Origin: Bacilli bacterium
GTDB taxonomy: Bacteria; Bacillota_I; Bacilli_A; RF39; UBA660
Reading direction: 5' to 3'
DNA length: 64,000 nucleotides
Assembly: GCA_900753325.1 (NCBI GenBank)
Contig: CAADYO010000001.1
Location: 410-64,409, forward strand
The notes below the pieces were generated by a model, which made no database searches, was not told where the DNA came from, and saw nothing but the letters and a program-made list of their open reading frames with translations. Positions 1,222 to 62,578 of the stretch are shown here, one piece after another (positions within the stretch are counted from its first letter, which is position 1; the number at the start of each line of letters is the position of its first letter). The position numbers and the translations under genes are program-made.

Positions 1222-2262
1222 TTATATTTCCTCCTCTATTATTCCTCCACCCAAACAGGTATTTTCTTCATCATAAAAAACTACTGATTGGCCTTTAGTT
1301 ATTGCTCGTACTGGTTCTTCAAAATTTACTATTATTTTATCATTATTTCTTTCTAAATTAGCTTTTACTTTTTGACCGCGAGAACGTATTTTGGCGTATA
1401 CAGTATTTGGTAAGTTATCTACTAAAATATTTATATCTTTGGCAATTAGACTCTTTTTATATAATTTATCATTTGTACCGACAATTAAAGCATTGTTTTT
1501 AGTATCTATTTCTAGTACATATAGTGGTTCTTTGTAACTAATATTTAATCCTTTTCTTTGACCAATTGTATAGTATATTAGGCCATGATGTTTTCCTATT
1601 AGTGTGCCATCATCTAAATATATATTACCTTGTTCTATCCTTTTATGTAGATTTTGTTTTAAATAAGTTGGATAATCATCATTTGGTATAAAACAAATTT
1701 CTTGACTATCTTTTTTATTACTAGTACTTAGATTGGCATTTGCGGCGATAGCACGTACTTCATCTTTATTATTATAGTTTTCTAATGGAAAAAGAATCTT
1801 ATTTAAAAGATTTTTATTTATGCCGTATAAAAAGTATGATTGATCTTTATTTTTAGTATTTGATTCCTTTAATTTGCCATTTTCTATTTTAGCATAATGA
1901 CCTGTTGCGATATAGTCTGCTTGGAATATTTCATTTGCTTTTTGATAGAAAAGGCCAAACTTAAATTTTTTATTGCATAATACACAAGGGTTTGGTGTTA
2001 ATCCTTTTTGATATGACTCAATGAAATTAGCTATTATTGTATCTTTAAATTCTTTCTCTAAGTCAAATACATAATGCTTGATACCTAAACTATTACAAAC
2101 ATTTTTAGCGTCTGTAATGGCTTTTTCTGTCTTTTTATCATTTAATAATTTCATTGTAGCTCCGATTACTTCATAACCTTCTTTTTTTAATAAATAGGCA
2201 GCTGTTGAGGAATCTACTCCTCCTGACATTGCCACTACTACTTTCTTTCCCATAAACTTCAC
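1222..2262 (-). CDS. mnmA: tRNA 2-thiouridine(34) synthase MnmA
   Basis: PP-loop SGGVDSS near the N-terminus, the CVLCNK and ATGHYA motifs, and about 346 aa are all typical of MnmA. Confidence 0.95.
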   Translation of the reverse strand: MKFMGKKVVVAMSGGVDSSTAAYLLKKEGYEVIGATMKLLNDKKTEKAITDAKNVCNSLGIKHYVFDLEKEFKDTIIANFIESYQKGLTPNPCVLCNKKFKFGLFYQKANEIFQADYIATGHYAKIENGKLKESNTKNKDQSYFLYGINKNLLNKILFPLENYNNKDEVRAIAANANLSTSNKKDSQEICFIPNDDYPTYLKQNLHKRIEQGNIYLDDGTLIGKHHGLIYYTIGQRKGLNISYKEPLYVLEIDTKNNALIVGTNDKLYKKSLIAKDINILVDNLPNTVYAKIRSRGQKVKANLERNNDKIIVNFEEPVRAITKGQSVVFYDEENTCLGGGIIEEEI

Positions 2263-2304
2263 CTATTTATAAATTATACAGTATTTTCAGTCATTTTTAA
2301 AGAT

Positions 2305-2901
2305 TTATGTAAGATTAAATAACTTAGGCATAACAAATGATTCTAATACGGCCGTTAATATTAATAGAAAAAGTGATATTAATAATAATTTTAAATATCT
2401 GTTTACAATTATTCTTTTATTATATTCTTTTTTACGAAATAAATAATTAAAGAGCATTAATGAAAAACTTATTGAATAATAAGATAAAACAAAAATAATA
2501 AATAAATTTATTAGATTTGGAATTATATATATTATGGACTTAATAATACCATTAAATTTATAGGTGTAGATTAAACTTGATATGGTAAAACCAAAGGTTA
2601 AACTTTTAAATGACAATATACTAATAACTATGGGAATACCAATTATTGATATACCTAATATCCATATTATTAAATTTATGATTATATTGTTAGTTAATGT
2701 TTTATATAGTAAGACACTTTGATTTAGCTTATTTTCTTTAATTGATATAAAAAAGTTATTTAGACTTTTTACAATTAAACTTTTATTATTACCTGATAAA
2801 ATACTTATTAAAAGTATTCCTATGATAAAGCTAATTACTGTTACTATGAATATTATTATGAATAGTTTTTTTTCTTTTAGTTTCTTTACTAGTTCTTTCA
2901 T
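2305..2901 (-). CDS. spoIIM: Stage II sporulation protein M-like membrane protein
   Basis: 198-aa polytopic membrane protein. The central WILGISIIGIPIV block and the overall layout match my memory of SpoIIM (WILGISIIGLP). Confidence 0.75.
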   Translation of the reverse strand: MKELVKKLKEKKLFIIIFIVTVISFIIGILLISILSGNNKSLIVKSLNNFFISIKENKLNQSVLLYKTLTNNIIINLIIWILGISIIGIPIVISILSFKSLTFGFTISSLIYTYKFNGIIKSIIYIIPNLINLFIIFVLSYYSISFSLMLFNYLFRKKEYNKRIIVNRYLKLLLISLFLLILTAVLESFVMPKLFNLT

Positions 2902-2994
2902 TTTATCATCCTCAGTTTAAGTATATTAACATTTTTCTTAAATATGTTTTACTTTTTGTGACAATTATTTTATAATTATTGTGAGGTGGATAAT

Positions 2995-3081
2995 ATGAAT
3001 AAAAATGTAACTCGTATTATATCAATTGTTTTAGTATTAGCTATGATTGTTGGTTTTATTAGTGTTTTGTTTTATCTATAA
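2995..3081 (+). CDS. Candidate 28-aa single-pass membrane peptide (below the ORF-track cutoff)
   Basis: ATG at 2995 lies 5 nt after GAGGTGGA. The product is MNKNVTRIISIVLVLAMIVGFISVLFYL, stop at 3079..3081, followed immediately by a hairpin. Confidence 0.4.
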   Translation: MNKNVTRIISIVLVLAMIVGFISVLFYL

Positions 3082-3082
3082 A

Positions 3083-3113
3083 AAGACGGGTCATCAAACT
3101 GGTGACTCGTCTT
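3083..3113. terminator. Bidirectional intrinsic terminator hairpin
   Basis: AAGACGGGTCATC / GGTGACTCGTCTT stem flanked by A-run and T-run, between convergent genes. Confidence 0.6.
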
Positions 3114-3114
3114 T

Positions 3115-3417
3115 TTATTTACTTATATATCCTTCTATTTCCGGAACTATTGTATTTATTGTTTCATTGTTAAAGTTATATTTATTTGCTATATCATTTA
3201 TTCTTTTATAATCTTTTGCTAAATATAACATTAATATTCCTGAGATACGATTAGCTGTATATTGACTCATTTTTTGATAATCTGCTTGGGATATATTATA
3301 TTTATTTTTTACTTCTTCAGCAGGTCCGTATGAATATAAATAATTTGTTAATGAGCGACTTACTAATTCTACTTTTTTATTTTTATCTTTTAGATGCACT
3401 TTTGTCCAAATTTTCAT
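3115..3417 (-). CDS. Hypothetical protein (100 aa)
   Basis: AGGAGGCATCACA precedes the ATG. No motif recognised. Confidence 0.55.
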   Translation of the reverse strand: MKIWTKVHLKDKNKKVELVSRSLTNYLYSYGPAEEVKNKYNISQADYQKMSQYTANRISGILMLYLAKDYKRINDIANKYNFNNETINTIVPEIEGYISK

Positions 3418-3570
3418 TGTGATGCCTCCTTTTTTCTTGTCTTAATATACTATCACAAAATGAGAACAAAATACAAATTAAAATTTGTCTTTTTGATTGT
3501 TGCCAACCAAAATTACTATAAATAATTCAATATATCTTCATTTGAAATAAAAAAGAAAGAATATCTTTCT

Positions 3571-7359: not shown

Positions 7360-9109
7360 TTTCTAATTCCTCCTTTGATAGTTGTGATAAAGCAATTTGT
7401 TTGTATACTTCACAGCTTTTTAATAATTCTTTATGTGTTCCAATTCCTACACATTCACCATTATCTAGAACTATTATTTTATCTGCATTCATGATAGTTC
7501 CGATACGTTGGGCAACTATCAGACTTGTTGCGTCTTTTGTATGTTTTTTTAATTCTTTACGAAGATATGAATCTGTCTTATAATCTAGTGCTGAAAATGA
7601 GTCATCAAATATATATATTTCTGGATTTCTGGCAATAGCTCGGGCTATGGCTAGACGCTGTTTTTGTCCTCCTGAGACATTTGTTCCGCCTTGGGCTAAG
7701 TGTGTTTCGTATTTATCATCCATTTTTTCGACAAACTCTTTGGCTTGAGCTACACGAATGGCATCTTTTATATCTTTATCGGTTTTTTCTTTACTTGAAG
7801 ATCCATATGCGACGTTATAATTTACACTTCCATTAAAAATTACGGCTTTTTGAGGAATATAACCTAGTTTATTGTTTAGCACTTCATTTTTGTAATCTTT
7901 AACGTTAATACCATCTACTAATACTTCGCCATCGGTAACATCATAAAATCTTGGTACTAGATTAATAAGCGTTGATTTACCAGAACCAGTTGAACCAATG
8001 AAGGCTACAGTTTGGCCTTTTTCGACTTTAAAAGAAATGTTTTTTAATATATATTCTTCGGCATCTGGATATTTAAAGGAAACGTTTTTAAATTCAACTG
8101 TTCCTTTTTCTTTAGGCTCTTCTGTTACTGTGCCATCTTTGATGGAACTTTTTGTTTCTAATACTTTATTTATACGTTCTGCTGATACTTGCGCTCTTGG
8201 CATCATCATAAAAATCATTGCTAACATTAAGAACGCCATAATTACTTGCATAGCATATGATGAGAAGACTACCATATCACCAAATAAAGCTATTTTATTG
8301 GCCATCATTGCATTATTTATTAGGGTTGAACCTATATAGTATATTGATAAAGCTAAACCATTCATTACTAAATACATTACTGGTGATAAGGTTGCAAACA
8401 TAGTTTGATTGAATAATTGTTGATTGGTTAATTTATTATTAACTTCATCAAATTTATTTTCTTGATATTTTTCGGCATTAAAAGCTCTTACTACTCTAAT
8501 ACCAGTTAAATTTTCCCTAGTTACACTATTAATTTTATCAATTAACTTTTGAACAATTTTAAACTTAGGCATAACAATAATTGTTATTATACCAATTACT
8601 GATAATAGTATAACTACAGCGATGGATGTGGCAACGGACCATTGCCAGCTTTTATTTAATATCTTTAAAATTGCCCAACCGGCTGTAATAGGAGCTTTTA
8701 AAAGCAATTGAAGACCAAAACTAATTAACATTTCAATTTGTGTAATATCATTTGTTGTTCTAGTTATTAAACTACTAATTTTAAATTGTTTTATTTCACT
8801 CATTGAAAGACTTTCTACTTTAGTGAATAAATCTTTGCGTAGTTTTCTTGAAAATGATGATGATATATGAGCAATTATGTAACCTACTATAATTGCGGCT
8901 AATAGGCTACCAAAGGCACAGGCTATCATCCAAGCACCGTTAGAAATAATATCAGACATTTTGCTGCCTTCTGTTTGAACTAGTTTTGTTATTTCAGACA
9001 TATAGTCTGGCATTTTTAATTCCAACCAAACTTGAACTATAACTAATAGTAAAGTAATAAAAGAAAATAGCCATTCTTTCTTATCAAATTTTTTTAGCAA
9101 TTTTATCAT
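7352..9109 (-). CDS. ABC exporter, fused permease/ATPase half-transporter (partner subunit)
   Basis: Walker A GSTGSGKST, signature SGGQKQRLAIARA, Walker B IYIFDDSFS; six-TM N-terminal half. Confidence 0.9.
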   Translation of the reverse strand: MIKLLKKFDKKEWLFSFITLLLVIVQVWLELKMPDYMSEITKLVQTEGSKMSDIISNGAWMIACAFGSLLAAIIVGYIIAHISSSFSRKLRKDLFTKVESLSMSEIKQFKISSLITRTTNDITQIEMLISFGLQLLLKAPITAGWAILKILNKSWQWSVATSIAVVILLSVIGIITIIVMPKFKIVQKLIDKINSVTRENLTGIRVVRAFNAEKYQENKFDEVNNKLTNQQLFNQTMFATLSPVMYLVMNGLALSIYYIGSTLINNAMMANKIALFGDMVVFSSYAMQVIMAFLMLAMIFMMMPRAQVSAERINKVLETKSSIKDGTVTEEPKEKGTVEFKNVSFKYPDAEEYILKNISFKVEKGQTVAFIGSTGSGKSTLINLVPRFYDVTDGEVLVDGINVKDYKNEVLNNKLGYIPQKAVIFNGSVNYNVAYGSSSKEKTDKDIKDAIRVAQAKEFVEKMDDKYETHLAQGGTNVSGGQKQRLAIARAIARNPEIYIFDDSFSALDYKTDSYLRKELKKHTKDATSLIVAQRIGTIMNADKIIVLDNGECVGIGTHKELLKSCEVYKQIALSQLSKEELEND

Positions 9110-9113
9110 ATAT

Positions 9114-9563
9114 TTATATTTCCTCCTCCTTGATGTTCTCTTTCATTATATTTAATACTTTTATAAATGTTTCCAAATCTTCTTGTCGTATGCCTTTTGT
9201 TATTTGCTGTTCTAGTTTTTTCATTTTTCTTTTCTTTTTTTCAAATATTTCAATAGTTCTTTCGTTTAAAACTATTTTTTTAGTTCTAGTATCTTGTTCG
9301 TTTGTTATGCGTTTTATTAAATTGTTTTTTTCCATGGCTTGTAAAACACCAGAGACAGTGGCACGACGGAGATTTAAAATATCTTCTAAATCCTTTTGAT
9401 TTATTTCTTGATTTTTACTGTCTAAAATTTTTTCTATTATTTGAAATTGTGTTGGTGACGGAAATATATTTTCTGGTATATCGACACTTTTATTATTTAT
9501 AAGTGAACGTACAATTTCTTTTTCTAGTGATTTTATTTCATATAATATATTTGTATTATTCAT
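9114..9563 (-). CDS. MarR-family transcriptional regulator
   Basis: Winged-helix segment LNLRRATVSGVLQAMEKNNLIKR...D.R.K; first gene of the ABC exporter operon. Confidence 0.85.
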   Translation of the reverse strand: MNNTNILYEIKSLEKEIVRSLINNKSVDIPENIFPSPTQFQIIEKILDSKNQEINQKDLEDILNLRRATVSGVLQAMEKNNLIKRITNEQDTRTKKIVLNERTIEIFEKKKRKMKKLEQQITKGIRQEDLETFIKVLNIMKENIKEEEI

Positions 9564-9604
9564 ATTAACCTCCTTTATGATTGTTAGTCACCATACATTT
9601 ATTC

Positions 9605-9634
9605 ATTTTAGTACTTTCGATATATTTTGTCAAG
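9605..9634 (-). promoter_or_regulatory. Candidate sigma-A promoter of the MarR-ABC operon
   Basis: On the minus strand, TTGACA (9629..9634), an 18-nt spacer, then TAAAAT (9605..9610). The heptamer CCATACA occurs on both sides (9591..9597 and 9637..9643). Confidence 0.45.
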
Positions 9635-9690
9635 TGCCATACAAAAATAGTAAAAATAAAAAAGTAGCTTTACACTACTTTGTTTTCTTA

Positions 9691-9767
9691 TGGTAGCCTG
9701 TACGGAATTCGAATCCGTGAATGTTGCCTTGAGAGGGCAATGTGTTAAGCCACTTCACCAACAGGCC
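9691..9767 (-). tRNA. tRNA-Glu (anticodon CTC)
   Basis: The reverse complement GGCCTGTTGGTGAAGTGGCTTAACACATTGCCCTCTCAAGGCAACATTCACGGATTCGAATTCCGTACAGGCTACCA folds as a cloverleaf. The anticodon stem is TTGCC/GGCAA with loop CTCTCAA. T-loop is TTCGAAT and the CCA end is encoded. Confidence 0.85.
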
Positions 9768-9798
9768 AATTAATAGTTCTCATTTGTAGAACATATTA

Positions 9799-9827
9799 AT
9801 TTTATCATAGTTAATTTGTTTTGACAA
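9799..9827 (-). promoter_or_regulatory. Candidate promoter of the solitary tRNA-Glu
   Basis: On the minus strand, TTGTCA (9822..9827), a 17-nt spacer, then TGATAAAAT extended -10 (TAAAAT at 9799..9804). Confidence 0.5.
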
Positions 9828-9854
9828 TATATCAATTGGCTTTTCTCACGATTT

Positions 9855-10133
9855 TTATTTTCTTAATCTTAAGTCTTTTACTAGTATTTGTTTTTTTCCA
9901 CATAAAACGCAAGATTGCTCTATGTCTTGCATTTCAAGACTGAAGCTAAATACTTGCTGCATACCAATTGGTTTCATTGTATATGTTTTTATATTTCTAT
10001 TTGAACTGCTAGTAACAAACAAATGGTCCTCTTCACTTTTACATATTTTAATACCTAAACTTTCTTCAACAGTTTTTCCTCCACTCTTATGAGCTACTAT
10101 TAAATCTAATATTTCTTTATTTATATCTTTCAT
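9855..10133 (-). CDS. Hypothetical protein (92 aa)
   Basis: AAAGGACGTGA RBS and its own TATAAT box upstream. Contains a C-terminal CVLCGKK. No family recognised. Confidence 0.5.
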   Translation of the reverse strand: MKDINKEILDLIVAHKSGGKTVEESLGIKICKSEEDHLFVTSSSNRNIKTYTMKPIGMQQVFSFSLEMQDIEQSCVLCGKKQILVKDLRLRK

Positions 10134-51357: not shown

Positions 51358-53985
51358 TCATTCGGATTTATTATTAATAGCGGCAATAGCAGCTGCTAGA
51401 CGTGCTACTGGGACACGATATGGAGAACATGATACATAATCTAATCCTACTTTATGACAGAATTCGATACTTTTTGGATCTCCACCATGCTCACCACAGA
51501 TTCCAAGTTGAATATCTGGTCTTGTCTTTCTTCCTAAATCAGCGGCAATGGCTACTAGTTTTCCGACTCCTTCTTGATCAATTGTTGCGAATGGATCTTG
51601 TTCAAGTATTTTTTTCTTATAGTAATCATTTAAGAATTTAGAAGCGTCATCTCTTGAGAATCCAAATGTCATTTGTGTTAAATCATTGGTTCCAAAACTG
51701 AAGAATTCGGCCTCTTTAGCAATTTCATCAGCGGTTAAGGCTGCTCTTGGTATTTCAATCATTGTTCCTACTTCATATTTTAGCTCCATACCGGCATCAG
51801 CAATTAATTTATCTGCTGTTTTGACAACTATATCTTTTACATATTTTAATTCTTTTACTGTTCCAACTAGTGGAATCATTATTTCTGGAATAACTGTTTT
51901 TCCTTCTTTTTTAATATTAATGGCAGCCTCAATAACAGCTCTTGTTTGCATTCTAGCTATTTCTGGATAAGTTATAGCTAAACGGCAGCCACGGTGGCCC
52001 ATCATTGGATTAAACTCTTTTAGGGATTCTACTCTATTTTTTAAAGCTTCAAAAGTCATGCCTAGACTTTCAGCTAATGGTTTAATTTCTTCATCTGTAT
52101 GTGGCAAAAATTCATGTAATGGTGGATCTAGGAAACGAATTGTTACAGTGTAGCCATCCATAGCTCTAAATAGGCCTTCAAAGTCTTCTTTTTGATATGG
52201 AAGAATTTTTTCTAAGGCTTCTTCTCTTGCTTCAGTTGTTGTTGCTGTTATCATACGACGGAAGTTAAAGATTCGCTCTTCTTCAAAGAACATGTGTTCT
52301 GTACGACATAGGCCAATTCCTTCAGCACCAAATTTTCGAGCTTGTAGAGCATCTTTTGGGGTGTCAGCATTTGTTCTGATTTTTAACTTACGAGTTGCAT
52401 CAGCCCATTCCATTATCGTTTCAAAATTACCTGATATTTCTGGTTCAACTGTTTTGATTTTTTCACCATAAACATTTCCTGTTGAACCATCTAGACTGAT
52501 ATAGTCTCCTTCTTTAAATACAGTACCATCTTTTAATGTTAATGTTTTGGTGTCTTCATCTACAACAATGTCTCCACAACCGGATACACAACAAGTTCCC
52601 ATTCCACGAGCAACAACGGCAGCATGTGACGTCATACCTCCACGTACAGTTAAAATTCCATGTGCTAGGTTCATTCCTTCAATATCTTCTGGTGATGTTT
52701 CAAGTCTTGCTAAAATAAGATCTTTTTCTCCTGCATTATGCATTTTAATGACATCTTCGGCAGTAAAGCACAATTTACCTGTTGCGGCACCAGGGGATGC
52801 AGCAAGACCTGTTGCAATAACTTTAGCAGCTTTTAGACTTTCATCATCAAAATTTGGATGTAGTAATTGATCTAGTTGTTTTGGTTCTATTTTTAATAAT
52901 GCTTCTTCTTTAGTAATCATGCCTTCATTTACTAAATCAACAGCAATTTGTAAAGCGGCTTTTGCTGTTCTTTTGCCATTTCTTGTTTGAAGCATAAATA
53001 GTTTGCCATCTTCAATTGTAAATTCCATATCTTGCATATCACGATAATGATTTTCTAGTAATTTACAAATCCTTTTGAATTCTTCATAACACTCTGGCAT
53101 TACTTCTTTTAGGGTATTGATACTTTGTGGTGTACGAATACCTGCTACAACATCTTCGCCTTGAGCGTTCATTAAATATTCACCATATAGTTTGTTTTCT
53201 CCTGTTGCTGGATTTCTTGTAAAGGCAACACCGGTTCCTGAAGTTTCTCCTTTATTACCATAAACCATTTCTTGAACGTTTACGGCTGTACCCCAGGCAC
53301 TTGGTATATCATTAAGGCGACGATATGTAATGGCTCTATCATTATTCCAACTTCTAAATACGGCTTTTACGGCCTCTATTAATTGTTCTGTTGGATCTTG
53401 TGGGAATGAAGTATGAGCAAGCTTTTCATACTCTCCTTTATATATTCTAATTACTTCTTTTAAATCTTCGGCACTTAGATCAGTATCATATTCAACATTC
53501 TTTTCTTCTTTTATTTTATCAAATAATCTTTCAAAAGATGATTTTGGGAAACCCATAACAACATCTGCAAACATTTGGATAAAGCGGCGATATGAGTCAT
53601 AGACAAAACGTGGGTTATTAGTAACTTTACTAAATCCTTCAGCCACTTCATCATTCATTCCTAAGTTTAGGACTGTATCCATCATTCCTGGCATACTAGC
53701 TCTTGCTCCTGATCTTACAGATACTAATAATGGATTTTCTTTATCACCGAATTTTTTACCTGTTACTTCTTCTAATTCAGTAATTTTACTTTTAATTTCT
53801 TCTATAATTGAGGAATCTAATTTTTCACCATCATCATAGTATTTACAACAAGCTTCTGTTGAAACTGTAAAGCCTCTTGGTACTGGTAGTCCAATATTAG
53901 TCATTTCAGCTAAATTGGCACCTTTTCCACCTAAGAGTTCGCGCATATCTTTACTTCCTTCAGTAAACATGTATACATATTTCAT
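51358..53985 (-). CDS. ppdK: Pyruvate, phosphate dikinase
   Basis: 875 aa with LLGGKGANLAEM, the phospho-His region GGMTSHAAVVARG, and a C-terminal PEP-utilising domain (CGEHGGDP). Confidence 0.95.
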   Translation of the reverse strand: MKYVYMFTEGSKDMRELLGGKGANLAEMTNIGLPVPRGFTVSTEACCKYYDDGEKLDSSIIEEIKSKITELEEVTGKKFGDKENPLLVSVRSGARASMPGMMDTVLNLGMNDEVAEGFSKVTNNPRFVYDSYRRFIQMFADVVMGFPKSSFERLFDKIKEEKNVEYDTDLSAEDLKEVIRIYKGEYEKLAHTSFPQDPTEQLIEAVKAVFRSWNNDRAITYRRLNDIPSAWGTAVNVQEMVYGNKGETSGTGVAFTRNPATGENKLYGEYLMNAQGEDVVAGIRTPQSINTLKEVMPECYEEFKRICKLLENHYRDMQDMEFTIEDGKLFMLQTRNGKRTAKAALQIAVDLVNEGMITKEEALLKIEPKQLDQLLHPNFDDESLKAAKVIATGLAASPGAATGKLCFTAEDVIKMHNAGEKDLILARLETSPEDIEGMNLAHGILTVRGGMTSHAAVVARGMGTCCVSGCGDIVVDEDTKTLTLKDGTVFKEGDYISLDGSTGNVYGEKIKTVEPEISGNFETIMEWADATRKLKIRTNADTPKDALQARKFGAEGIGLCRTEHMFFEEERIFNFRRMITATTTEAREEALEKILPYQKEDFEGLFRAMDGYTVTIRFLDPPLHEFLPHTDEEIKPLAESLGMTFEALKNRVESLKEFNPMMGHRGCRLAITYPEIARMQTRAVIEAAINIKKEGKTVIPEIMIPLVGTVKELKYVKDIVVKTADKLIADAGMELKYEVGTMIEIPRAALTADEIAKEAEFFSFGTNDLTQMTFGFSRDDASKFLNDYYKKKILEQDPFATIDQEGVGKLVAIAADLGRKTRPDIQLGICGEHGGDPKSIEFCHKVGLDYVSCSPYRVPVARLAAAIAAINNKSE

Positions 53986-54079
53986 ATATTATTCCCTCCT
54001 ATTTTCTATACTCTTTAAGTATAGCAAGTTATTGGAACTTGAACAAGTTTTTTTACATTTTTTTACTAAAGAAAAAGAC

Positions 54080-54379
54080 TTATTTTATTAAGTCTTCTAT
54101 TTGTTTTTTTTCTAAATATCCTATATGTTTATTAGCAAGTTTTCCATCTTTAAATACTAGTAAGGTTGGAATAGACATTATGGTATATTCTCTACTAATA
54201 TTTGGAAATTTATCAACATCTACTTTTACTACATGCACATCTTCATGCTCTTTAGCAAATGTTTCGATTACTGGTTCTAATAATCTACAAGGTCCACACC
54301 AGGTAGCATAAAAATCTACTAAGACTTTTTCTTTTTTAATTTCTTCATTAAAATCTTTTTCATTTTCCAAATAAGTCAT
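54080..54379 (-). CDS. trxA: Thioredoxin
   Basis: WCGPC active site; 99 aa. Confidence 0.9.
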   Translation of the reverse strand: MTYLENEKDFNEEIKKEKVLVDFYATWCGPCRLLEPVIETFAKEHEDVHVVKVDVDKFPNISREYTIMSIPTLLVFKDGKLANKHIGYLEKKQIEDLIK

Positions 54380-54392
54380 TATGATTCCTCCT

Positions 54393-55109
54393 CTATTTAT
54401 ACTTATTTATAACTTTATCTAAACCAGATATACTATCTAGTTTATCTAAAACCATTAGTTGCTCAACAGTATGAGCACTTGTTATGTCATATTTTATCAT
54501 GGTATCTATTATTTCTAAGTTGGCCTCATTGGTACTTACTTTCTTATTTACAACTTTATCGGCTACAACATAAATATCTTCTATAGAGTTGGTTATATTA
54601 CTACTAGAATTTGAAATAATCGGTGTTTTATAAATAATAGTATTTACTAAGGAACTATTACTAAATAAATCAAAATTTTTAAATGGTAGAACTAATAGTA
54701 GTAAAATTATAAAGGCAAATAAGTAACCTTCTATTAAACCAATTACGAATCCTCCTATAGCTGATGGTAATTTTAAAATAATGGTGGCATTGACTATTTT
54801 CTGAATAAATTTTGATATACCTGTTAATAAACCATAAATGGATAATAATACAGCTATTATAATTATAAAAGCTAGTAATTGGTATATTAATATATTTATA
54901 GATACTAATCCTTCTAAATTACCTGAAAATTTAAAGAATGGTAAGTATTTACATAATAAATTACCAAATGGTTCTTTAAAATAGAAAGCTATTATAAATA
55001 CTAATATTATACCTATTAATGAAACGGCACTTTTTATTAGACCTTGTTTAGCACCAACGACTGCAAACATAATAATAAATAATATAATACCTATATCAAA
55101 TATGTTCAT
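54393..55109 (-). CDS. cvpA: CvpA-family membrane protein
   Basis: MNIFDIGIILFIIMFAVVGAKQGLIKS N-terminus typical of CvpA. It lies divergent from rnhC, a common Bacillota arrangement. Confidence 0.7.
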   Translation of the reverse strand: MNIFDIGIILFIIMFAVVGAKQGLIKSAVSLIGIILVFIIAFYFKEPFGNLLCKYLPFFKFSGNLEGLVSINILIYQLLAFIIIIAVLLSIYGLLTGISKFIQKIVNATIILKLPSAIGGFVIGLIEGYLFAFIILLLLVLPFKNFDLFSNSSLVNTIIYKTPIISNSSSNITNSIEDIYVVADKVVNKKVSTNEANLEIIDTMIKYDITSAHTVEQLMVLDKLDSISGLDKVINKYK

Positions 55110-55183
55110 TTTATCACACTCCTATTTTTAATTATAAACTATTTTTAATAATTATGCTATAATATTTGAAAGAGGTGGAATAA

Positions 55184-56095
55184 ATGAATGTAGTTATTAA
55201 AGTTAATGATGAGATTAAGCAAAAGATGATTGAATATTATAAAGATAAAATGAGAGATAAAGTTATTCCATATGTGGTTTTTCAGGCTGAAGAAGAAGAT
55301 ACAGTTATTACGATGTATGAATCAGGTAAAGTAATGTTTCAGGGAAAAAGTGCTGATGTTGATGCAGCTATGTGGGGTGTAGCTTTAGAAAATACTAAGG
55401 AAAAACAAGAAGAGGCAAAAAAGGCAGATGTGAAATATTATAATACTAATGCTGTTGGATCGGATGAGGTTGGAACAGGAGACTATTTCGGGCCTATTGT
55501 TGTTACCGCTACTTATGTAAAGAAAGAAGATATACCATTTTTAGAAAAATTAGGTGTTGGTGATTCTAAAAAGATTGATGATTCTAAAATTTTAAAAATA
55601 GCTCCAGAAATTGCTAAAAGAGTTAAGTATCGTAGTATTATTCTTAGTAATAAAGAATATAATGAAAAGTATACTAAAAATATTAATATGAATAAAATTA
55701 AAGCTATTATGCATAATAAAGTTTTGTATCAATTAATGACAGAAGAAAAACCTAATGTTGATTATATTATTGTAGATGAATTTGCGAGAGAAGCTAGATA
55801 TTATGATTATTTAGATGACGTTAAAGACGTTCAAAGAGGTATTACTTTTATTACTAAGGCTGAGGATAAAAATCTAGCTGTTGCATCTGGTTCAATAATT
55901 AGTCGTTATATTTTCTTAAAAGAATTTGATAAACTTTGTGATAGTATTCATATTCCATTACCAAAAGGAGCTGGCAAAGATGTTGACTCTATTGGCGAAG
56001 AAGTAGTTGAAAGGTATGGTAAAGATAAGTTAAAAGAAATTGCTAAATTGAATTTTAAAAATACAGATAGAATACTCCATACTATGATTATGTAA
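55184..56095 (+). CDS. rnhC: Ribonuclease HIII
   Basis: N-terminal TBP-like domain, then the GSDEVGTGDYFGP catalytic motif; about 303 aa. Confidence 0.9.
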   Translation: MNVVIKVNDEIKQKMIEYYKDKMRDKVIPYVVFQAEEEDTVITMYESGKVMFQGKSADVDAAMWGVALENTKEKQEEAKKADVKYYNTNAVGSDEVGTGDYFGPIVVTATYVKKEDIPFLEKLGVGDSKKIDDSKILKIAPEIAKRVKYRSIILSNKEYNEKYTKNINMNKIKAIMHNKVLYQLMTEEKPNVDYIIVDEFAREARYYDYLDDVKDVQRGITFITKAEDKNLAVASGSIISRYIFLKEFDKLCDSIHIPLPKGAGKDVDSIGEEVVERYGKDKLKEIAKLNFKNTDRILHTMIM

Positions 56096-56120
56096 TTATA
56101 ATTTTATAAAGCGAGAATAA

Positions 56121-56147
56121 AAGACCATTGATAATATCAACGGTCTT
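56121..56147. terminator. Bidirectional terminator hairpin between rnhC and the kinase operon
   Basis: AAGACCATTGAT-AAT-ATCAACGGTCTT stem flanked by A/T runs. Confidence 0.6.
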
Positions 56148-56156
56148 TAACTTTTT

Positions 56157-58010
56157 CTAGATATCTTTTTTATCTGAAAAGTATTTTTTTATGAGGCTAC
56201 TTAATTCATATGGTTTAATAGGTTTTGAAAGATACTCATCAAATCCTTCATTTAAGTACATTTCACGCATACCAGAAATGGCATTAGCTGTTAGAACAAC
56301 TACTGGTGGTATAACATATCCATCTAGTTTTTTTAATTTATGAAGAGTCTCTATTCCATCCATTTCACGCATCATATGATCCATAAAAATCATATCATAT
56401 TTGTTTTCGGCTTTAATACTATGGATACAATCTCTTCCTGATGTTAGTGTTTTAATATTAAACTTGTATGGTTCTAGTATTCGTTTAGTAACTTTTACAC
56501 TCAATTCATCATCATCTACTATTAAAATAGTATATTGAGAGCAATCTATATAATCAATATCTTTTTTTGATTTAATCGCATCTGTAATATTACCTATTGG
56601 CATACTATTAATAATTTTTTGTTTCACTACTATTTGAAAAATACTACCTGCTCCATATTCACTTTCCATTGATACTTTTCCGGACATCATATCAGCGTAT
56701 TTTTTAACAATAGTTAAACCAAAGTTAGAGCTATCAACATTTTTAGAACTAGTATTATTTTTACTAAATATGCTATTTATTTTGGCTTGCTCTTCTTCTT
56801 TAATACCGCAACCAGTATCTGATACTTTCATTGTGAGTAGGCAGTCTTCATTAGTTATTTCTGAGGTTATAGTTAACTTTATTTTACCAACTTCAGTATA
56901 CTCTATCGCGTTTGTTAAAAAGTTTAATAATATTTGATATAGTTTATTATGGTCTCCATAAAGTCTTGTAGGGATTTTTTCATCAACATTTAAAATAAAT
57001 TCTACCGGTTTTTCACCTATTTTGGTATTAACTATATTGACTAAGTCTTTTATTATATTCACTAGAGAATATTCTTTTTCTTCTAATATTTCATTGTTTG
57101 ACTCTAAGGCTGAAATATCTAGAATATTATCAATTATATTTAAAAGATTGCCTCCATCTATAGATATTTCTTTTATGTAATCTCTAGTCTCTATCTCACT
57201 GTATGATTTTTCTTTTAATATTAATTTACTACACTTTATAATTGTATTCATAGGGTGAACTATTTCGTTTGACATATTTGATAGAAAATCCGTTTTTGTT
57301 TTATTTGATTTATCAATTTCTTCTTTTATACCTTCTAATTCTTGAACATTTCTTATATCTGGATTTTCAATATTGAAATACAAAAAGAACATTTGAAGAG
57401 ATGTACCAACTGCTTCAAAGGCTATTTCTTTGAATAATAATTGCAAAAGAACAATAACTATTATTAGAATTGCTTGAGTATATATAGCTTGTTTTTTTCT
57501 GGAACTAACTCCTTTTCCATGAATAATAGTATAGCCTATGATAAGTATAACCATAATTGAGGCATAGCCAATTATGTAGTAAGCTGCTGGTCCTGGTATG
57601 TAGGAAACAATATCTAGGCTGTCAAATGGTACAAAGAAATAAATTATTGTTGCAACTACAGTAAATGCTGTTACTAATTTTGTTCTAGTATTATAAAATA
57701 TATATTCTTTTAAGCTATTTACAGATATATCACTTACAAATGTAATATTATATAAATATAAGAAGTAGTAGCAAAAAATACCAGTTAACCAATGAATTCT
57801 AATTGCTAATTCTTTTAGAGAATAATCTTTTAAATAATATATTACTGTAGATGATACTACTTCTGTAAGCAATAAAAACATCATAGTAATTAACATATAT
57901 TTATATAATTTTGTTTCCATAGTTTTATTATTATTTTGAGAAAAATATACAATTAGAAGTAAAAGCATGAAGAATATACTACCGATGGTTAAAGTTAATC
58001 CTGATATCAT
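56157..58010 (-). CDS. Hybrid sensor kinase/response regulator with intact ATP-binding and receiver domains but Asn at the canonical phospho-His position
   Basis: H-box reads FLSNMSNEIVHPMN (AAC codon at 57267..57269). N-box is NFLTNAIEYT, G1 is DTGCGI, and G2 is partly kept as FGLTIV. The REC domain is canonical: LIVDDDE, MIFMDHMM, LTANA, LSKPI. Confidence 0.85.
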   Translation of the reverse strand: MISGLTLTIGSIFFMLLLLIVYFSQNNNKTMETKLYKYMLITMMFLLLTEVVSSTVIYYLKDYSLKELAIRIHWLTGIFCYYFLYLYNITFVSDISVNSLKEYIFYNTRTKLVTAFTVVATIIYFFVPFDSLDIVSYIPGPAAYYIIGYASIMVILIIGYTIIHGKGVSSRKKQAIYTQAILIIVIVLLQLLFKEIAFEAVGTSLQMFFLYFNIENPDIRNVQELEGIKEEIDKSNKTKTDFLSNMSNEIVHPMNTIIKCSKLILKEKSYSEIETRDYIKEISIDGGNLLNIIDNILDISALESNNEILEEKEYSLVNIIKDLVNIVNTKIGEKPVEFILNVDEKIPTRLYGDHNKLYQILLNFLTNAIEYTEVGKIKLTITSEITNEDCLLTMKVSDTGCGIKEEEQAKINSIFSKNNTSSKNVDSSNFGLTIVKKYADMMSGKVSMESEYGAGSIFQIVVKQKIINSMPIGNITDAIKSKKDIDYIDCSQYTILIVDDDELSVKVTKRILEPYKFNIKTLTSGRDCIHSIKAENKYDMIFMDHMMREMDGIETLHKLKKLDGYVIPPVVVLTANAISGMREMYLNEGFDEYLSKPIKPYELSSLIKKYFSDKKDI

Positions 58011-59833
58011 ATTCTCACATCCTTTTCTTCATTTATATATTTAGATATTATTCTGTTTATTTCATCCTTGCTTACAGGTTTATATATAATATCATTTATG
58101 TATGGCTTGCTTTTTTCTACTCTATTTTCATTCATCTCTACAATGACAGAATTCATATTAATACCTTTGAGACTTGTTTCTAGTGTCTCATCTATATAAC
58201 TACTATCAATTAAGATTAAATCATATTTTTCAAATGATACTTTACTCATATATTCTTCTTTGGTAGAGGCACTTGAAATATTATAATGATATTCTTCTAG
58301 TAGTTTACTAATAATTATATAATTAACTTTGTTACTATCAACTATTAATACTTTTTTAGTAACAGCAGGCTTTTCTGATGGTATAGCAGTGGTCTCAGTT
58401 GAACTATTACTAATACTTTGAATAAAGTAAATACTACACTCACAGTGATTGTTATTCATTTTAAAGCCTATTCTACCATTTAATAGATTAATGTATCGTT
58501 TGGCAATTATTAGTTTTAGATCATCATTATTAATAGAGCTATCTTTCTTTTCACCAAATTTTACGAAATCATTAAATTCAATATCAAGTTTTTCAGCTGG
58601 TATATAGCAATTGTTACTACTTATGTTAAATAATAATTGATAATTCTTTTTTTCCATTTTTTTATAATCTACTGCTGTTGTTATCTTACCGTCCGGAGTA
58701 GACTTTAGAAGATAGTTTATTATATTGCTGAAAATCTTATGCATTTTTTTATCGTCACCAATAAATTCTGGAGGGATATTTTCGTTAATGGATGTTTTAT
58801 ATTCAATATTTTCATTTCCTTTGGCAATAGTTTCTTCCTCTAGATTTGACATTAATGTATTGATATTATACTTTTCATTTTCTATTTTTTCTTTATTTGT
58901 TTCTAAGGCTGAAATATCAAGGATGGAATCAATTAATTCTGCTAGAATGCTACTAGCTTCATAGATATTTTCGGTATCTCTTTTAGCAACTTCTTCTGTT
59001 AATGGATTTTCGTTTAATAATACTTCACTAAATCCTAGAATGGTACTCATTGGAGTTCTAATTTCGTGAGACATGTTTATTAAGAATTCGGTTTTAGCTT
59101 TGTCAGCTATAGTTACTTTTTCTTTTGAGACTTGTAATTCTTGAATAAGTTTGCTATCCTGACTTTCTATTGTAAAGTAAAGCGTGGCAATAATGAAAGC
59201 AAACATAAAGGTAATTGTATTATAGTCATAACCTAGTACTATTTGAGGAAAAATAATTAAAATGAATAAAGCAATGGTAAAATAAATAGGTTTTTTTTGG
59301 TTGCTAGGTATAGTTTTTCCTTTAAAAGCCATTACTATACAGATAATTATTAGAAGAATCGCACCATCAATATAAGCAATATTAGCACCTGGTCCAGCAA
59401 AGTTATAAAATCCTGATTTAGAGCTTGAATAATCAAATGGTAGGGTTGTAGAAATGGAAATTATAATAACAGCTAACACTAGAAGTATTATAAATGTGAT
59501 TAAGTTATGTCTTCTTTCTTTCTCTTTATCATCATATTTTTCAAGAAGAGTTATTAAATAATATATAAGTAAATTAATCCAAATTAGGTCACCAATTGTA
59601 TAAATACGACAAGTTAGTTCTGTTAATTTTGGGTTTGTATCTATGACGGAAAGTCCATAGATATAGCCCATTTCACAAAATGTTAATGTAATTCCTAAGC
59701 CGAGTAAGGCTGCAAATACTTTGGTCTGAATATCTCCTGTCTTTTTTTTATTTAGATACATGAGTAATATAAGAATTAAATATCCTAAGGCACATATAGC
59801 AAACCCCATACTTCCGAACATTTTAAATTTCAC
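58007..59833 (-). CDS. Hybrid sensor-kinase paralogue with an intact H-box but degenerate ATP-lid boxes and a divergent receiver
   Basis: H-box FLINMSHEIRTPMSTILGFSE (CAC codon at 59066..59068). ISSNNCYIP stands where DxGxG is expected and NDDLKLIIAK where GxGLGL is expected. The REC-like tail has VLIVDSN, LILIDSS and YKPV. Its stop overlaps the next start in ATGA. Confidence 0.8.
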   Translation of the reverse strand: MKFKMFGSMGFAICALGYLILILLMYLNKKKTGDIQTKVFAALLGLGITLTFCEMGYIYGLSVIDTNPKLTELTCRIYTIGDLIWINLLIYYLITLLEKYDDKEKERRHNLITFIILLVLAVIIISISTTLPFDYSSSKSGFYNFAGPGANIAYIDGAILLIIICIVMAFKGKTIPSNQKKPIYFTIALFILIIFPQIVLGYDYNTITFMFAFIIATLYFTIESQDSKLIQELQVSKEKVTIADKAKTEFLINMSHEIRTPMSTILGFSEVLLNENPLTEEVAKRDTENIYEASSILAELIDSILDISALETNKEKIENEKYNINTLMSNLEEETIAKGNENIEYKTSINENIPPEFIGDDKKMHKIFSNIINYLLKSTPDGKITTAVDYKKMEKKNYQLLFNISSNNCYIPAEKLDIEFNDFVKFGEKKDSSINNDDLKLIIAKRYINLLNGRIGFKMNNNHCECSIYFIQSISNSSTETTAIPSEKPAVTKKVLIVDSNKVNYIIISKLLEEYHYNISSASTKEEYMSKVSFEKYDLILIDSSYIDETLETSLKGINMNSVIVEMNENRVEKSKPYINDIIYKPVSKDEINRIISKYINEEKDVRI

Positions 59834-59984
59834 ATTAACACTTCCTTTTGTATTCTACTATTCTTTTATAATTTTACTATACATTATGAAAAAACTCAAA
59901 TACTTTTATGTAAAACAACTTAAGTTTCATTTTTACAGAAAAAGATTGCTCATGATTTTAGCAACCTTTTATTTTCTTATTTTT

Positions 59985-60470
59985 CTACTTTTTTCTTGTA
60001 TATATTGTATGTTTATAATCTATATTATTATAGCTATGGGTACAAAGTACTTCCTTTTGCCAGTCCTCTTTATTAATTTTTGGAAAATAAGCATCGGCAG
60101 GTGCTTCTTCTTCTATTTCTGTTATAATGAGTTTGGTGGCATATGGTAAAAATTCTTGATATATTTTAGCACCACCAATTACCATTACTTCTTCATCAAT
60201 ACCTTTCAAGTATTCGATTAAATCGTCAGTATTATTAAAAACTTGTAACCATTCAGATTCTTCTAGATTATTATGAGTTAGAACTAAATGCTTTCTTCCT
60301 GGTAATAGTTTTTTTAGTGACTCTAGAGTTTTTCGCCCAAGAATTACTTTTTTACCAATTGTTTGTTCTTTAAAGAACTTTAAATCTTCTGGTAGATGCC
60401 ATAATAATTTATTATCATTTCCTAATTCGTTATTTTTGCCAACTGCGGCAATCATAGTTATCTTTGCCAT
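59985..60470 (-). CDS. folA: Dihydrofolate reductase
   Basis: MIAAVGKNNELG..LLWHLPEDLKFFKEQT and VIGGAKIY motifs; immediately downstream of thyA. Confidence 0.9.
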   Translation of the reverse strand: MAKITMIAAVGKNNELGNDNKLLWHLPEDLKFFKEQTIGKKVILGRKTLESLKKLLPGRKHLVLTHNNLEESEWLQVFNNTDDLIEYLKGIDEEVMVIGGAKIYQEFLPYATKLIITEIEEEAPADAYFPKINKEDWQKEVLCTHSYNNIDYKHTIYTRKK

Positions 60471-60471
60471 T

Positions 60472-61323
60472 TTAAATACCTATATCAAACTTCATTTGAG
60501 GATTTTTTTCTTTTATTTCACTTCTTGGATATCCTACTATTTTTATATCATCAACTGTGAAGTCGTAGAAGTTTGTTTTTTCAGGATTTAACCAGATTTT
60601 TGGCTCGCAATCGACTGGTTCTCTTTTTATTAACTCTTTGGCTTGATCAATATGGCGATCATAAATTTGAATGTTGTTATAAAACCAAGTAAATCTTCCT
60701 GGCGTTAAGCCAAGATGTCTTGCTACTAGATGTAGAAAAACTAAGTATTGTACTTGATTAATGCAACCAGCTGTTGCAAAGTCACTTGAGCGTTGTGTTA
60801 GGCACATATCTAAATAATCTATGCCATCTTTTCCGTGGCGAACATTCCATTCAGTCATAAAGGCACATGGTTTTAAGCCATGCGGTTCTTTAAAATCATC
60901 TTCTTGCCATAAATTTATTATATGACGTCTACCATCTGGATTTTCTTTTAATCCTTTTAGTAGATTTTTCATTAATTGATGCCTTCTTACAGTTTCTCCA
61001 TAGACTGCTCCGATAGTACGATTACCAATGTCCCATTCATCCCACCAGGTGACACCATATTTATCTCTTAAAACGTTTAAATCATTAGATTCATCTTGAT
61101 AAATCCATAATAATTCACCAATGCTAGATTTTACAGCAATTGGACGCAAAGTTATTAGTGGACTCTCTCCTTTAGTTAAATCATAAGTACACATGCCATG
61201 GTTAACACTTAGTGTATGTGCTGGCGTTCCATCAGCGTAGTGTGGTCTTGGGTCTTTATCTAAACAGCCTTCATCTAAGATTCTTTGTAATATTTCTTTT
61301 GTATATTTATCTCCTTTTGTCAT
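60472..61323 (-). CDS. thyA: Thymidylate synthase (ThyA)
   Basis: LKPCAF active-site Cys region and QRSSD motif. The start is placed at 61323 (AAGGAGGATAAT RBS, MTKGDKYTKEIL). The track extension to 61446 overlaps dnaJ and its terminator. Confidence 0.93.
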   Translation of the reverse strand: MTKGDKYTKEILQRILDEGCLDKDPRPHYADGTPAHTLSVNHGMCTYDLTKGESPLITLRPIAVKSSIGELLWIYQDESNDLNVLRDKYGVTWWDEWDIGNRTIGAVYGETVRRHQLMKNLLKGLKENPDGRRHIINLWQEDDFKEPHGLKPCAFMTEWNVRHGKDGIDYLDMCLTQRSSDFATAGCINQVQYLVFLHLVARHLGLTPGRFTWFYNNIQIYDRHIDQAKELIKREPVDCEPKIWLNPEKTNFYDFTVDDIKIVGYPRSEIKEKNPQMKFDIGI

Positions 61324-61423
61324 ATTATCCTCCTTTAGACTAAATAATTGTAACATATTATCTTTAAAATACTGTGTTGCTTTTGCAACTAATAAAAAAT
61401 ATAAATAAAAAAGTGATTTAAAA

Positions 61424-62578
61424 TCACTCTTCATTGTTTGAAACAAACTTATTAAAATTAGCTATTTCTCTTGTTGTTAGTTCAGTATCAGATAATCTGG
61501 TTATCAAGTCTTTTTGTTCTCTTGTTAACTTTTTAGGTGTATATACTTTAAATATTACATACATGTCTCCTTTATGGCGACGATATTCATTATTTACACC
61601 TTTACCTCTAATTTTTTGTTTTTCTCCAGAATCCGTTCCAGCTGGTACTGTTAGCTTGACATTTCCATATAATGTTGGAATTTCTTTTTTGCAGCCAAGA
61701 ATTGCTTCTGTTATAGTTAATGGAACCTCTAGATAAATATCATCATTATCTCTAACGTAATAGTCATGTTCAGCAACAATATATTCTATATATAAATCGC
61801 CATTTTCTCCACCGTTTGAGCCTGGATTACCTTTTCCAGATAAGCGTTGACGATCTCCTGTTGCAACACCGGCTGGAATATTAATGGTAATTCTCTTATT
61901 CTTTTTAATTTTTCCTTTTCCGTTACATTCACTACACTTTCTTTTGTAGATTTTTCCTAGGCCGTGACAGTCTGGGCAAGGGGTTTTTGATAGAAAAGAA
62001 CCTAATATTGTTTGTCTTTGACTAGTAATAGTTCCAGTTCCGTGACAAGTTTCACAGTCTTTTGGATCAAAGCCACCTTTACCGTGACATTCTTCACATT
62101 CTTCTACAACATCTAGATTAAATTTCTTTTCAGTGCCAAAGACAGCCTCATCAAAATCTAGATTCATACGCATTAAAACGTCGCTTCCACGGACAGCCCT
62201 GGAACGTGATGATGTTTGTCCACCAAAGTTTGAAAATCCACTAAAACCAGATGTATTAGTTCCACCAAAAAATGAATCAAAAATATCACCAAAGTCAAAG
62301 CTAGATGCATCAAATCCGCCAAAACCAGATCCACCGCCTGCATAAGAATTATTTACTCCTGCATGTCCATACTGGTCATACATCTTACGTTTTGAATCAT
62401 CTGATAATACTTCGTATGCCTCTTGAGCTTCCTTAAATTTATCGGCTGCTGTTGGATCATCTTTATTTAAATCTGGATGATATTGCTTTGCTTTTTTACG
62501 AAAGGCACTTTTTATTTCATCGGTGCTTGCATTTTTATCTACGCCTAACACCTCATAATAATCTCTTTTATCAGCCAT
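61424..62578 (-). CDS. dnaJ: Molecular chaperone DnaJ
   Basis: J domain with the HPD motif (KQYHPDLN), a G/F-rich linker and four CxxCxGxG zinc-finger repeats. Stop codon is TGA, followed by an AGTGATTTTAAATCACT hairpin and a T-run. Confidence 0.95.

Follow-up and report, generated by a model that had tools for sequence, protein, structure and literature searches.

HK-A and HK-B, a candidate split hybrid histidine kinase of two translationally coupled paralogues in an uncultured gut Bacilli genome

Described systems that divide the work of a histidine kinase

Histidine kinases are usually viewed as self-sufficient homodimers, and complementation of defects between the subunits of a mixed dimer is a classic trick of the laboratory. 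Split kinases are, to our knowledge, known mainly from one chemotaxis system, in which whole domains are missing. Here we describe two adjacent genes for hybrid histidine kinases, HK-A and HK-B, in a 64,000-nucleotide stretch of a Bacilli bacterium genome (contig CAADYO010000001.1; this whole stretch is called the window, and positions are counted along it). Both proteins have a membrane sensor region, a dimerization and histidine phosphotransfer (DHp) domain, a catalytic and ATP-binding (CA) domain and a receiver, and neither combines the phospho-accepting His with a full ATP site. The reading we favour, with about even confidence, is that HK-A and HK-B make up one split hybrid kinase of two co-produced, paralogous seven-helix membrane sensors.

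The reaction proposed for the pair has been seen in vitro with EnvZ- and NtrB-type mutants, in which one subunit of a mixed dimer has no His but a good CA domain and phosphorylates the His on the other, CA-dead subunit. Those subunits were engineered mutants of one protein, however, whereas the corresponding states of HK-A and HK-B are fixed in natural paralogues with different sensors. EnvZ can also be split in vitro, and in Rhodobacter sphaeroides CheA4 phosphorylates CheA3 while neither protein autophosphorylates alone (PMC3591291). The CheA3/CheA4 pair is the closest in logic, with the acceptor and the ATP-using module on two separate, co-operating proteins, however, these are soluble class II CheA proteins from which whole domains are missing (P1, or P3 and P4). 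HK-A and HK-B, in contrast, are full-length membrane paralogues of the HisKA class that keep all folds and differ in catalytic residues, their activity is predicted, and the receiver function is partitioned between them as well.

Several other systems share single features with the pair. The hybrid kinases GacS, RetS and LadS of Pseudomonas aeruginosa interact via DHp heterodimerisation and cross-phosphotransfer (PMC5992135, PMC12189002; structures 7z8n, 6dk7, 7n0e). Both GacS and RetS rank among the top sequence and structure matches of HK-A and HK-B, however, GacS works by itself and RetS inhibits, the genes are not linked, nor are they recent tandem paralogues, and no reciprocal residue loss is seen. 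In Myxococcus xanthus EspA/EspC, one of two hybrid kinases phosphorylates the receiver of the other. A model search with the pair gave weak hits to NCBIfam NF052573 and NF052574, which we take to be the EspA/EspC models, but EspA is competent alone and that pair shows neither reciprocal residue loss nor translational coupling. ChpT, Spo0B and PhyT share the make-up of HK-A, namely a DHp His with a CA-like domain unable to bind ATP, and PhyT is also membrane-bound. They receive phosphate from a receiver and not from the CA domain of a partner, and they are without a seven-helix sensor and pseudo-receiver (PMC3433190, PMC5898713); moreover, the partner of HK-A has no acceptor His, so that, unlike in their case, no upstream autokinase is evident. 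The counterpart of HK-B, a HisKA-type kinase with a residue other than His at the acceptor position, is found in Caulobacter DivL (4q20) and CCNA_03265. For the latter, two readings have been proposed: use of a nearby downstream His, or heterodimerisation with another hybrid kinase (PMC10760086). DivL regulates CckA as a pseudokinase and has no complementary partner next to it, and a CA-dead paralogue is equally missing beside CCNA_03265.

Catalytic residues, domains and selection in HK-A and HK-B

Both genes lie on the minus strand, HK-A at 58007..59833 (608 amino acids (aa), GTG start) and HK-B at 56157..58010 (617 aa), and the TGA stop of the first overlaps the ATG start of the second in ATGA at 58007..58010, an arrangement for translational coupling. 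An earlier reading of the sequence alone, made without database searches (the sequence-only reading), had placed both open reading frames and the overlap here, and this is what the sequence contains. HK-A and HK-B are paralogous, with 28% identity over 488 aa (E 7e-43), and their Pfam domain strengths are mirror images. HisKA scores 54.9 bits in HK-A and 29.1 in HK-B (cut-off 26.9); HATPase_c scores 27.1, barely above the cut-off of 26.4, in HK-A and 74.2 in HK-B; and Response_reg, with a cut-off of 30.2, falls below it in HK-A (29.4, profile positions 1-51 only) and reaches 81.5 in HK-B (positions 1-110 of 111). These scores match the defects that the sequence-only reading had assigned to each protein. 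The shared layout that it had described, a polytopic sensor followed by DHp, CA and receiver, emerges from AlphaFold2, and for the three domains after the sensor from Pfam as well. The AlphaFold2 models are of single chains, one for each protein, with a mean predicted local distance difference test (pLDDT) score of 78.4 for HK-A and 80.7 for HK-B, and in each the seven membrane helices lead to a DHp helical hairpin, a CA domain folded as an alpha/beta sandwich and a domain resembling a receiver. A simple hydropathy count gives 5 strong membrane segments versus the seven helices of the models, and we take seven as the predicted number. A normal CA fold is modelled for the degenerate CA domain of HK-A, and the HK-A model superposes on the DHp-CA regions of HK853, GacS, DivL and RetS with a template modelling score (TM-score) of about 0.73, normalised to the target. 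A fold search with the HK-A model returned ordinary DHp-CA kinases, a result that indicates a kept CA fold and does not discriminate between mechanistic models.

Catalytic residues were placed by alignment to GacS (7z8n) and about 240 homologues. In HK-A the H-box, NMSHEIRTPMSTILGFSE, keeps His256 (codon CAC, 59066..59068, minus strand), the proposed phospho-acceptor of the pair, together with the adjacent Glu257 and Thr260 at +4. The pseudo-CA domain (residues ~320-470, 58424..58876, minus strand) keeps its fold and has lost its ATP-binding residues: Tyr376 stands at the Mg-binding Asn position of the N-box, SNNCY within ISSNNCYIP (at 404) aligns on the G1 motif DTGIG of GacS, NDDLKL within NDDLKLIIAK (at 436) aligns on its G2 motif GTGLGL, and there is no G3 box. 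The pseudo-receiver (residues ~493-604, 58022..58357, minus strand) reads VLIVDSN at 495, that is, Asp-Ser for the acidic pair, and has lost the Thr, with Asp543 and Lys585 kept. The textbook H-box, the missing G1 and G2 and the missing receiver acid of the sequence-only reading were all located, although the losses run wider than it had stated, as the N-box Asn, the G3 box and the receiver Thr are gone too.

HK-B has the opposite pattern. Asn248 (codon AAC, 57267..57269, minus strand) in its H-box NMSNEIVHPMN aligns on the phospho-His of GacS. The CA domain (residues ~312-466, 56613..57077, minus strand) has the N-box NFLTNAIEYT at 363, with Asn367, the G1 box DTGCGI at 398 and the G3 box GAGS. 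The receiver (residues ~493-612, 56175..56534, minus strand) has the motifs VDDDE, FMDHMM, LTANA and SKPI with Asp499, Asp500, the phospho-acceptor Asp544 (codon 56379..56381, minus strand), Thr574 and Lys596. The Asn at the phospho-His position and the N-box, G1 and receiver motifs are thus all where they had been expected. The His and a full ATP site occur together in neither protein, HK-A having the His and HK-B the N-box and G1. HK-A has the His and adjacent acid of the H-box and HK-B, with Asn248, does not; conversely, HK-B has the receiver of a hybrid kinase and HK-A, with its Asp-Ser, lost Thr and Pfam score below the cut-off, does not. This is the residue make-up of a split kinase, an acceptor without a kinase module in one protein and a kinase module without an acceptor in the other, while HK-A taken singly has the make-up of a kinase-like phosphotransferase, a DHp His with a CA-like fold lacking the ATP-binding residues. 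Kinase activity requires an acidic residue directly after the phospho-His, and phosphatase activity a Thr or Asn at +4 (PMC3510030); HK-A keeps both. Additionally, the receiver-docking stretch of helix alpha-1 has stayed close to the related consensus in HK-A (identity 0.81) and has diverged from it in HK-B (0.40), which fits docking of the HK-B receiver on the DHp domain of HK-A.

The pattern is conserved. Orthologues were counted as clusters at 90% identity, 116 for HK-A and 37 for HK-B. The His256-Glu257...Thr260 centre of HK-A is invariant (His in 116/116), the N-box Asn is replaced by Tyr or Phe throughout (0/116), the G2 Gly is absent (0/116) and the G1 Asp survives in 7/116. In HK-B, His occurs at the acceptor position in 0/37 clusters (31 Asn, 6 Ser), whereas the N-box Asn, the D/G/G of G1 and all five receiver residues (D/D/D/T/K) are present in 37/37. 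Every orthologous pair found therefore keeps the reciprocal defects, as the sequence-only reading would have it, and because the pattern is fixed across all these clusters it is neither chance nor sequencing error. Mean identity among orthologues is 0.78 and 0.77 in the DHp domains of HK-A and HK-B, 0.55 in the pseudo-CA of HK-A and 0.63 in the CA of HK-B, 0.57 in the pseudo-receiver and 0.83 in the receiver, and 0.21 and 0.59 in the interdomain linkers of HK-A and HK-B.

Every domain, including the degenerate ones, is under purifying selection. The ratio of nonsynonymous to synonymous substitution rates (dN/dS) is 0.04-0.17 in the HK-A pseudo-CA domain and 0.05-0.11 in the pseudo-receiver, compared with 0.5-0.96 in the HK-A linker, and because of these low values we consider the degenerate domains to be maintained and not decaying. 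This bears on the possibility that HK-A and HK-B are decaying duplicates of a former two-kinase relay whose complementarity is coincidental. Such decay would account for the catalytic residues gone from both proteins, for relay partner genes (see below) that are not adjacent and for a pair that evolves faster, at 62-72% identity between species, than the housekeeping genes beside it, at about 90%. However, no orthologue has a broken reading frame for either protein, dN/dS stays at 0.04-0.17 whichever domain is taken, the catalytic residues that are left do not vary and one-sided loss recurs five times in the wider family, so that decay is strongly disfavoured and seems to us scarcely credible. 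As for the rates themselves, when the flanking regions (window 51358-56095 and 59985-62578) were compared with the related loci L001-L009, RnhC and PpdK were 89-95% identical in related species and HK-A and HK-B 53-72%. In L086, a metagenome assembly from the species of the window itself, HK-A is called at 613 aa with no Pfam hit (8163-10004); in the same assembly hrcA and dnaK are split or shortened (286-1279 and 1932-3536), and assembly errors are the probable cause.

The sensor regions (HK-B, window 57366-58010; HK-A, window 59159-59833) matched no Pfam or NCBIfam family. A hit of the HK-A sensor to 7tm_3 (20 bits against a cut-off of 33.5) was below threshold and was set aside as compositional. 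Within predicted membrane helices, a Glu (HK-B 50, HK-A 54) and a Gln (HK-B 190, HK-A 197) are invariant in all aligned homologues of both paralogues, and so is the LYFxIENPD junction that leads into the DHp helix.

Losses across the wider family of tandem pairs

To place the pair among its relatives we draw on a family scan of one genome per species, comprising 80 loci. A tandem pair, with an A-type member upstream and a B-type member downstream, occurs in about 50 of them, and the pairs are of three kinds. In the first, both members are fully canonical (L036, L038, L041, L042, L043, L049). In the second and largest group, a fully canonical B-type member stands beside an A-type member that has its His, N-box, G3 and receiver intact but an altered G1, NTGHA (Asp replaced by Asn and the second Gly lost), and a G2 of the form SxTLGL. 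The third kind is that of the window (L001-L009, L013, L081-L086), and only part of it has the window's synteny. The altered G1 of the second kind, NTGHAM, is conserved across many species (for example at L010:6110-7996), which hints at a nucleotide site that may be changed and not simply lost. We rejected the idea that the three kinds form one orthologue series, since synteny differs between them and the genome MAG291 carries both L037 and the window-type pair L004; one genome can hold two pair types.

Loss of catalytic residues in these pairs is one-sided. The His is lost in none of the A-type members and the N-box or G1 in none of the B-type members, while the B-type His has been lost in five independent lineages. 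The acceptor position is Asn or Ser in the window clade, Tyr in L039 and L047, Gln in L032, Lys in L046 and Asn in L084. A His at +4, the His252 of HK-B, is present in the window clade only, and in the other four lineages helix alpha-1 is without any His, with G1 and the receiver kept; L084 even has a fully canonical CA domain (DTGYG, GTGLGL). In all five lineages the upstream partner combines a retained His with a dead G1 box. The nearest relatives of the His-less proteins bear the His (L084 with L011, 61%; L032 with L030, 56%; L039 with L011, 52%), and a neighbour-joining tree is consistent with His-bearing kin for the Tyr lineage. On the other hand, the His is always kept in the six pairs with an intact upstream CA domain and in about 35 single hybrid kinases. 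Such one-sided losses with a retained N-box and G1 are expected if the downstream CA domain serves the upstream His.

The HK-A and HK-B pair is found in every orthologous locus with sufficient flanking sequence, and the genes overlap by 4 nt or 1 nt in 10/10 pairs of the window's kind, whereas other related pairs mostly have spacers of 9-19 nt. At L051 (2523-9666), four kinase genes in a row form two successive degenerate-upstream/canonical-downstream pairs, the second upstream member being without a receiver, and the pair thus seems to duplicate as a unit.

Proposed relay, competing explanations and genomic setting

We infer a heteromeric complex of HK-A and HK-B, trans-phosphorylation within it, a route for the phosphate and partners downstream. 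HK-A would supply the sole complete phosphotransfer centre (His256, Glu257, Thr260) and would be unable to bind ATP, while HK-B, without a His at the acceptor position, would supply the sole ATP-binding catalytic domain and the sole working receiver. In the complex, the simplest form of which would be an A:B dimer formed via the DHp helices, the HK-B CA domain would phosphorylate His256 of HK-A, from which the phosphate would pass to Asp544 of HK-B and then, as related operons suggest, to a histidine phosphotransfer (Hpt) protein and a receiver-HD-type regulator that are probably encoded elsewhere in the genome. The pseudo-CA domain and pseudo-receiver of HK-A may act as structural or docking modules, and the two differing sensor domains would let two inputs gate a single phosphoryl flux. 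An ATP site and a receiver conserved as perfectly as those of HK-B require a His to act upon and a source of phosphate, and the only canonical candidate is His256 of HK-A. The split-kinase interpretation is partly supported, and the comparative evidence favours mutual dependence together with a split-kinase mechanism. In its fullest form, the reading is of an obligate heterodimeric HisKA kinase in which acceptor His, ATP site and receiver are divided between the subunits, in which phosphorylation is confined to the step between subunits and depends on the consent of both sensors, and whose one-sided division has evolved repeatedly in one family of uncultured gut Bacilli; this we put forward tentatively, with slightly less than even confidence.

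Several points weigh against the split kinase. His252 of HK-B (codon CAC, 57255..57257, minus strand), four residues beyond the lost His, is found in 37/37 clusters, whereas residue 248 alternates between Asn and Ser, and this invariance argues for a role of His252, possibly as a relocated acceptor. The N-box and G1 box of HK-B are canonical, as the sequence-only reading had stated, but its CA domain is not fully so, since G2 is a weak SSNFGL versus the family's GTGLGL, with one of three Gly left. Within the clade, G2 varies (SSNFGL, GRSLGL, GFNL; canonical GTGLGL in L004, L005 and L008), and GTGLGL is invariant in the His-bearing relatives of HK-B, so that the kinase activity of HK-B may be weak. 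Some kinases of the broad group, such as ArcB, autophosphorylate in cis, and with such a geometry the HK-B CA domain could not reach the HK-A His in a dimer. A six-frame search of the 64 kb window found no other Hpt, receiver, kinase or HD_5 protein, and no Hpt or response regulator lies within 8-10 kb of the pair in orthologous loci. Finally, the pair kinds are partly paralogous families and are used here as related families and not as time points.

The first of these points leads to an alternative in which HK-B works by itself as a hybrid kinase, its acceptor shifted by one helical turn to His252, while HK-A is a membrane phosphotransferase of the ChpT/Spo0B/PhyT kind that takes phosphate from the HK-B receiver and hands it onward, in place of the missing Hpt. 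The invariance of His252 beside a variable residue 248 fits such a move, as does helix geometry, since residues i and i+4 should share a helix face, and a similar idea has been proposed for the Caulobacter hybrid kinase CCNA_03265, which lacks the conserved His (His151; PMC10760086). Beyond that speculation the literature on a relocated acceptor His offered nothing decisive. However, His252 is followed by Pro253 and not by the acidic residue needed in HisKA kinases (PMC3510030), and the docking stretch of alpha-1 in HK-B has diverged from the canonical consensus, unlike that of HK-A. The four other His losses, in which no alpha-1 His is left and G1 and the receiver are kept, indicate that a relocated His is not needed to explain a His-less HK-B. 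The second half of this alternative gains from ChpT (PMC3433190) and the membrane-bound PhyT (PMC5898713), His-bearing proteins with dead CA domains that act in this way, and from the absence at the window locus of the Hpt gene of related pairs, although the HK-A receiver is itself degenerate and a regulator elsewhere would be needed as acceptor. Overall, we regard a relocated acceptor as unlikely, while noting that it deserves consideration.

The relatives of the pair show what a complete relay may look like. Where the B-type member bears its His, the operon of the pair also encodes a stand-alone Hpt (~122 aa) and a receiver-HD_5 regulator (~530 aa, HD-GYP type), in the order Hpt-RR-A-B or A-B-Hpt-RR (RR, the regulator), whereas Hpt and regulator are adjacent to none of the His-less pairs. 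Such Hpt and receiver-HD_5 operons occur at L010:4091-6087, at L038:3862-5817 and at about 30 other related loci. At L036:8001-10268 and L037:7962-10322 the downstream kinase (755-786 aa) ends in a C-terminal Hpt, which makes it a kinase-receiver-Hpt fusion. Distant single hybrid kinases (L054-L080; 33-36% identical to HK-B) have a gene for an Hpt-receiver fusion (~265 aa) directly after them, for example L057:9847-10632, L058:10263-11081 and L061:10684-11535. As judged from these sequences, the kinase family is evidently built for multistep relays, and the window pair either feeds partners encoded elsewhere or stops at its own receiver. The absence of an adjacent Hpt had been noted by the sequence-only reading, which is true for the window but misses the Hpt and receiver-HD regulator operons of related pairs.

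That all His-less pairs are unlinked from the Hpt and receiver-HD regulator of their His-bearing relatives is also what one might expect of a regulatory pseudokinase module resembling RetS or DivL. Such a module would bind or drain other kinases or an Hpt, with the HK-B receiver as a sink or docking site and a CA domain that only binds nucleotide. The relaxed G2 box of HK-B and the DivL-like Tyr at the His position of one lineage fit this possibility, and GacS, RetS and DivL are among the best sequence matches in solved structures and the close fold matches. RetS itself acts on GacS by heterodimerisation and phosphate siphoning (PMC12189002). Against this, the HK-B N-box Asn and G1 D/G/G are present in 37/37 clusters, L084 combines a canonical CA domain with the loss of the His, and the His256-Glu257...Thr260 centre of HK-A is invariant in 116/116. 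HK-B shares with DivL a residue other than His at the acceptor site (Asn248), but the strict conservation of N-box, G1 and receiver argues for retained chemistry, and a sink leaves the strict complementarity and the tightened gene overlap unexplained. A pseudokinase module is, in our view, improbable.

The split kinase would be produced from a housekeeping neighbourhood of low G+C content (~27% in the window), with dnaJ, thyA and folA upstream of the pair and rnhC, cvpA, trx and ppdK downstream. A Shine-Dalgarno-like sequence, AAAGGAAG (core GGAAG; 59841..59849, minus strand), lies 7 nt 5' of the GTG start of HK-A, and AAGGA lies 9 nt 5' of the HK-B ATG, within the 3' end of HK-A. No terminator was found between the two genes in a scan of 55000..61600. 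A promoter scan of the same region yielded a weak candidate at 59899..59871, however, its 52 promoter-like sites versus 46.5 expected are uninformative in AT-rich DNA. The thyA reading frame (window 60472-61446, TTG start, 324 aa) overlaps dnaJ by 23 nt as listed, and its true start is probably an internal ATG, since the gene is called at 283 aa in related contigs. Relatives of the window come from genomes of uncultured gut organisms that carry the labels Bacilli, Mollicutes or Tenericutes; Mycoplasma sp. CAG:877 and Clostridium sp. CAG:1000 are two of them.

Precedents exist for split kinases, for heteromers of kinases and for kinase-like phosphotransferases. What is new here is a translationally coupled, reciprocal division at the level of single residues between full-length HisKA hybrid paralogues, and its repeated evolution. 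Automatic annotation labels both HK-A and HK-B as kinases, though each of them, by itself, is probably not one. That the downstream His has been lost several times, and only where the upstream partner has a dead CA domain, provides a testable rule for finding such pairs in genomes. If the reading is true, HK-A and HK-B would be a natural split kinase in the main (HisKA) class, with paralogues made mutually dependent through point losses, and a clean case of duplicated genes dividing one function. The pair would then also illustrate how a single phosphoryl flux can be placed under the AND logic of two membrane sensors.

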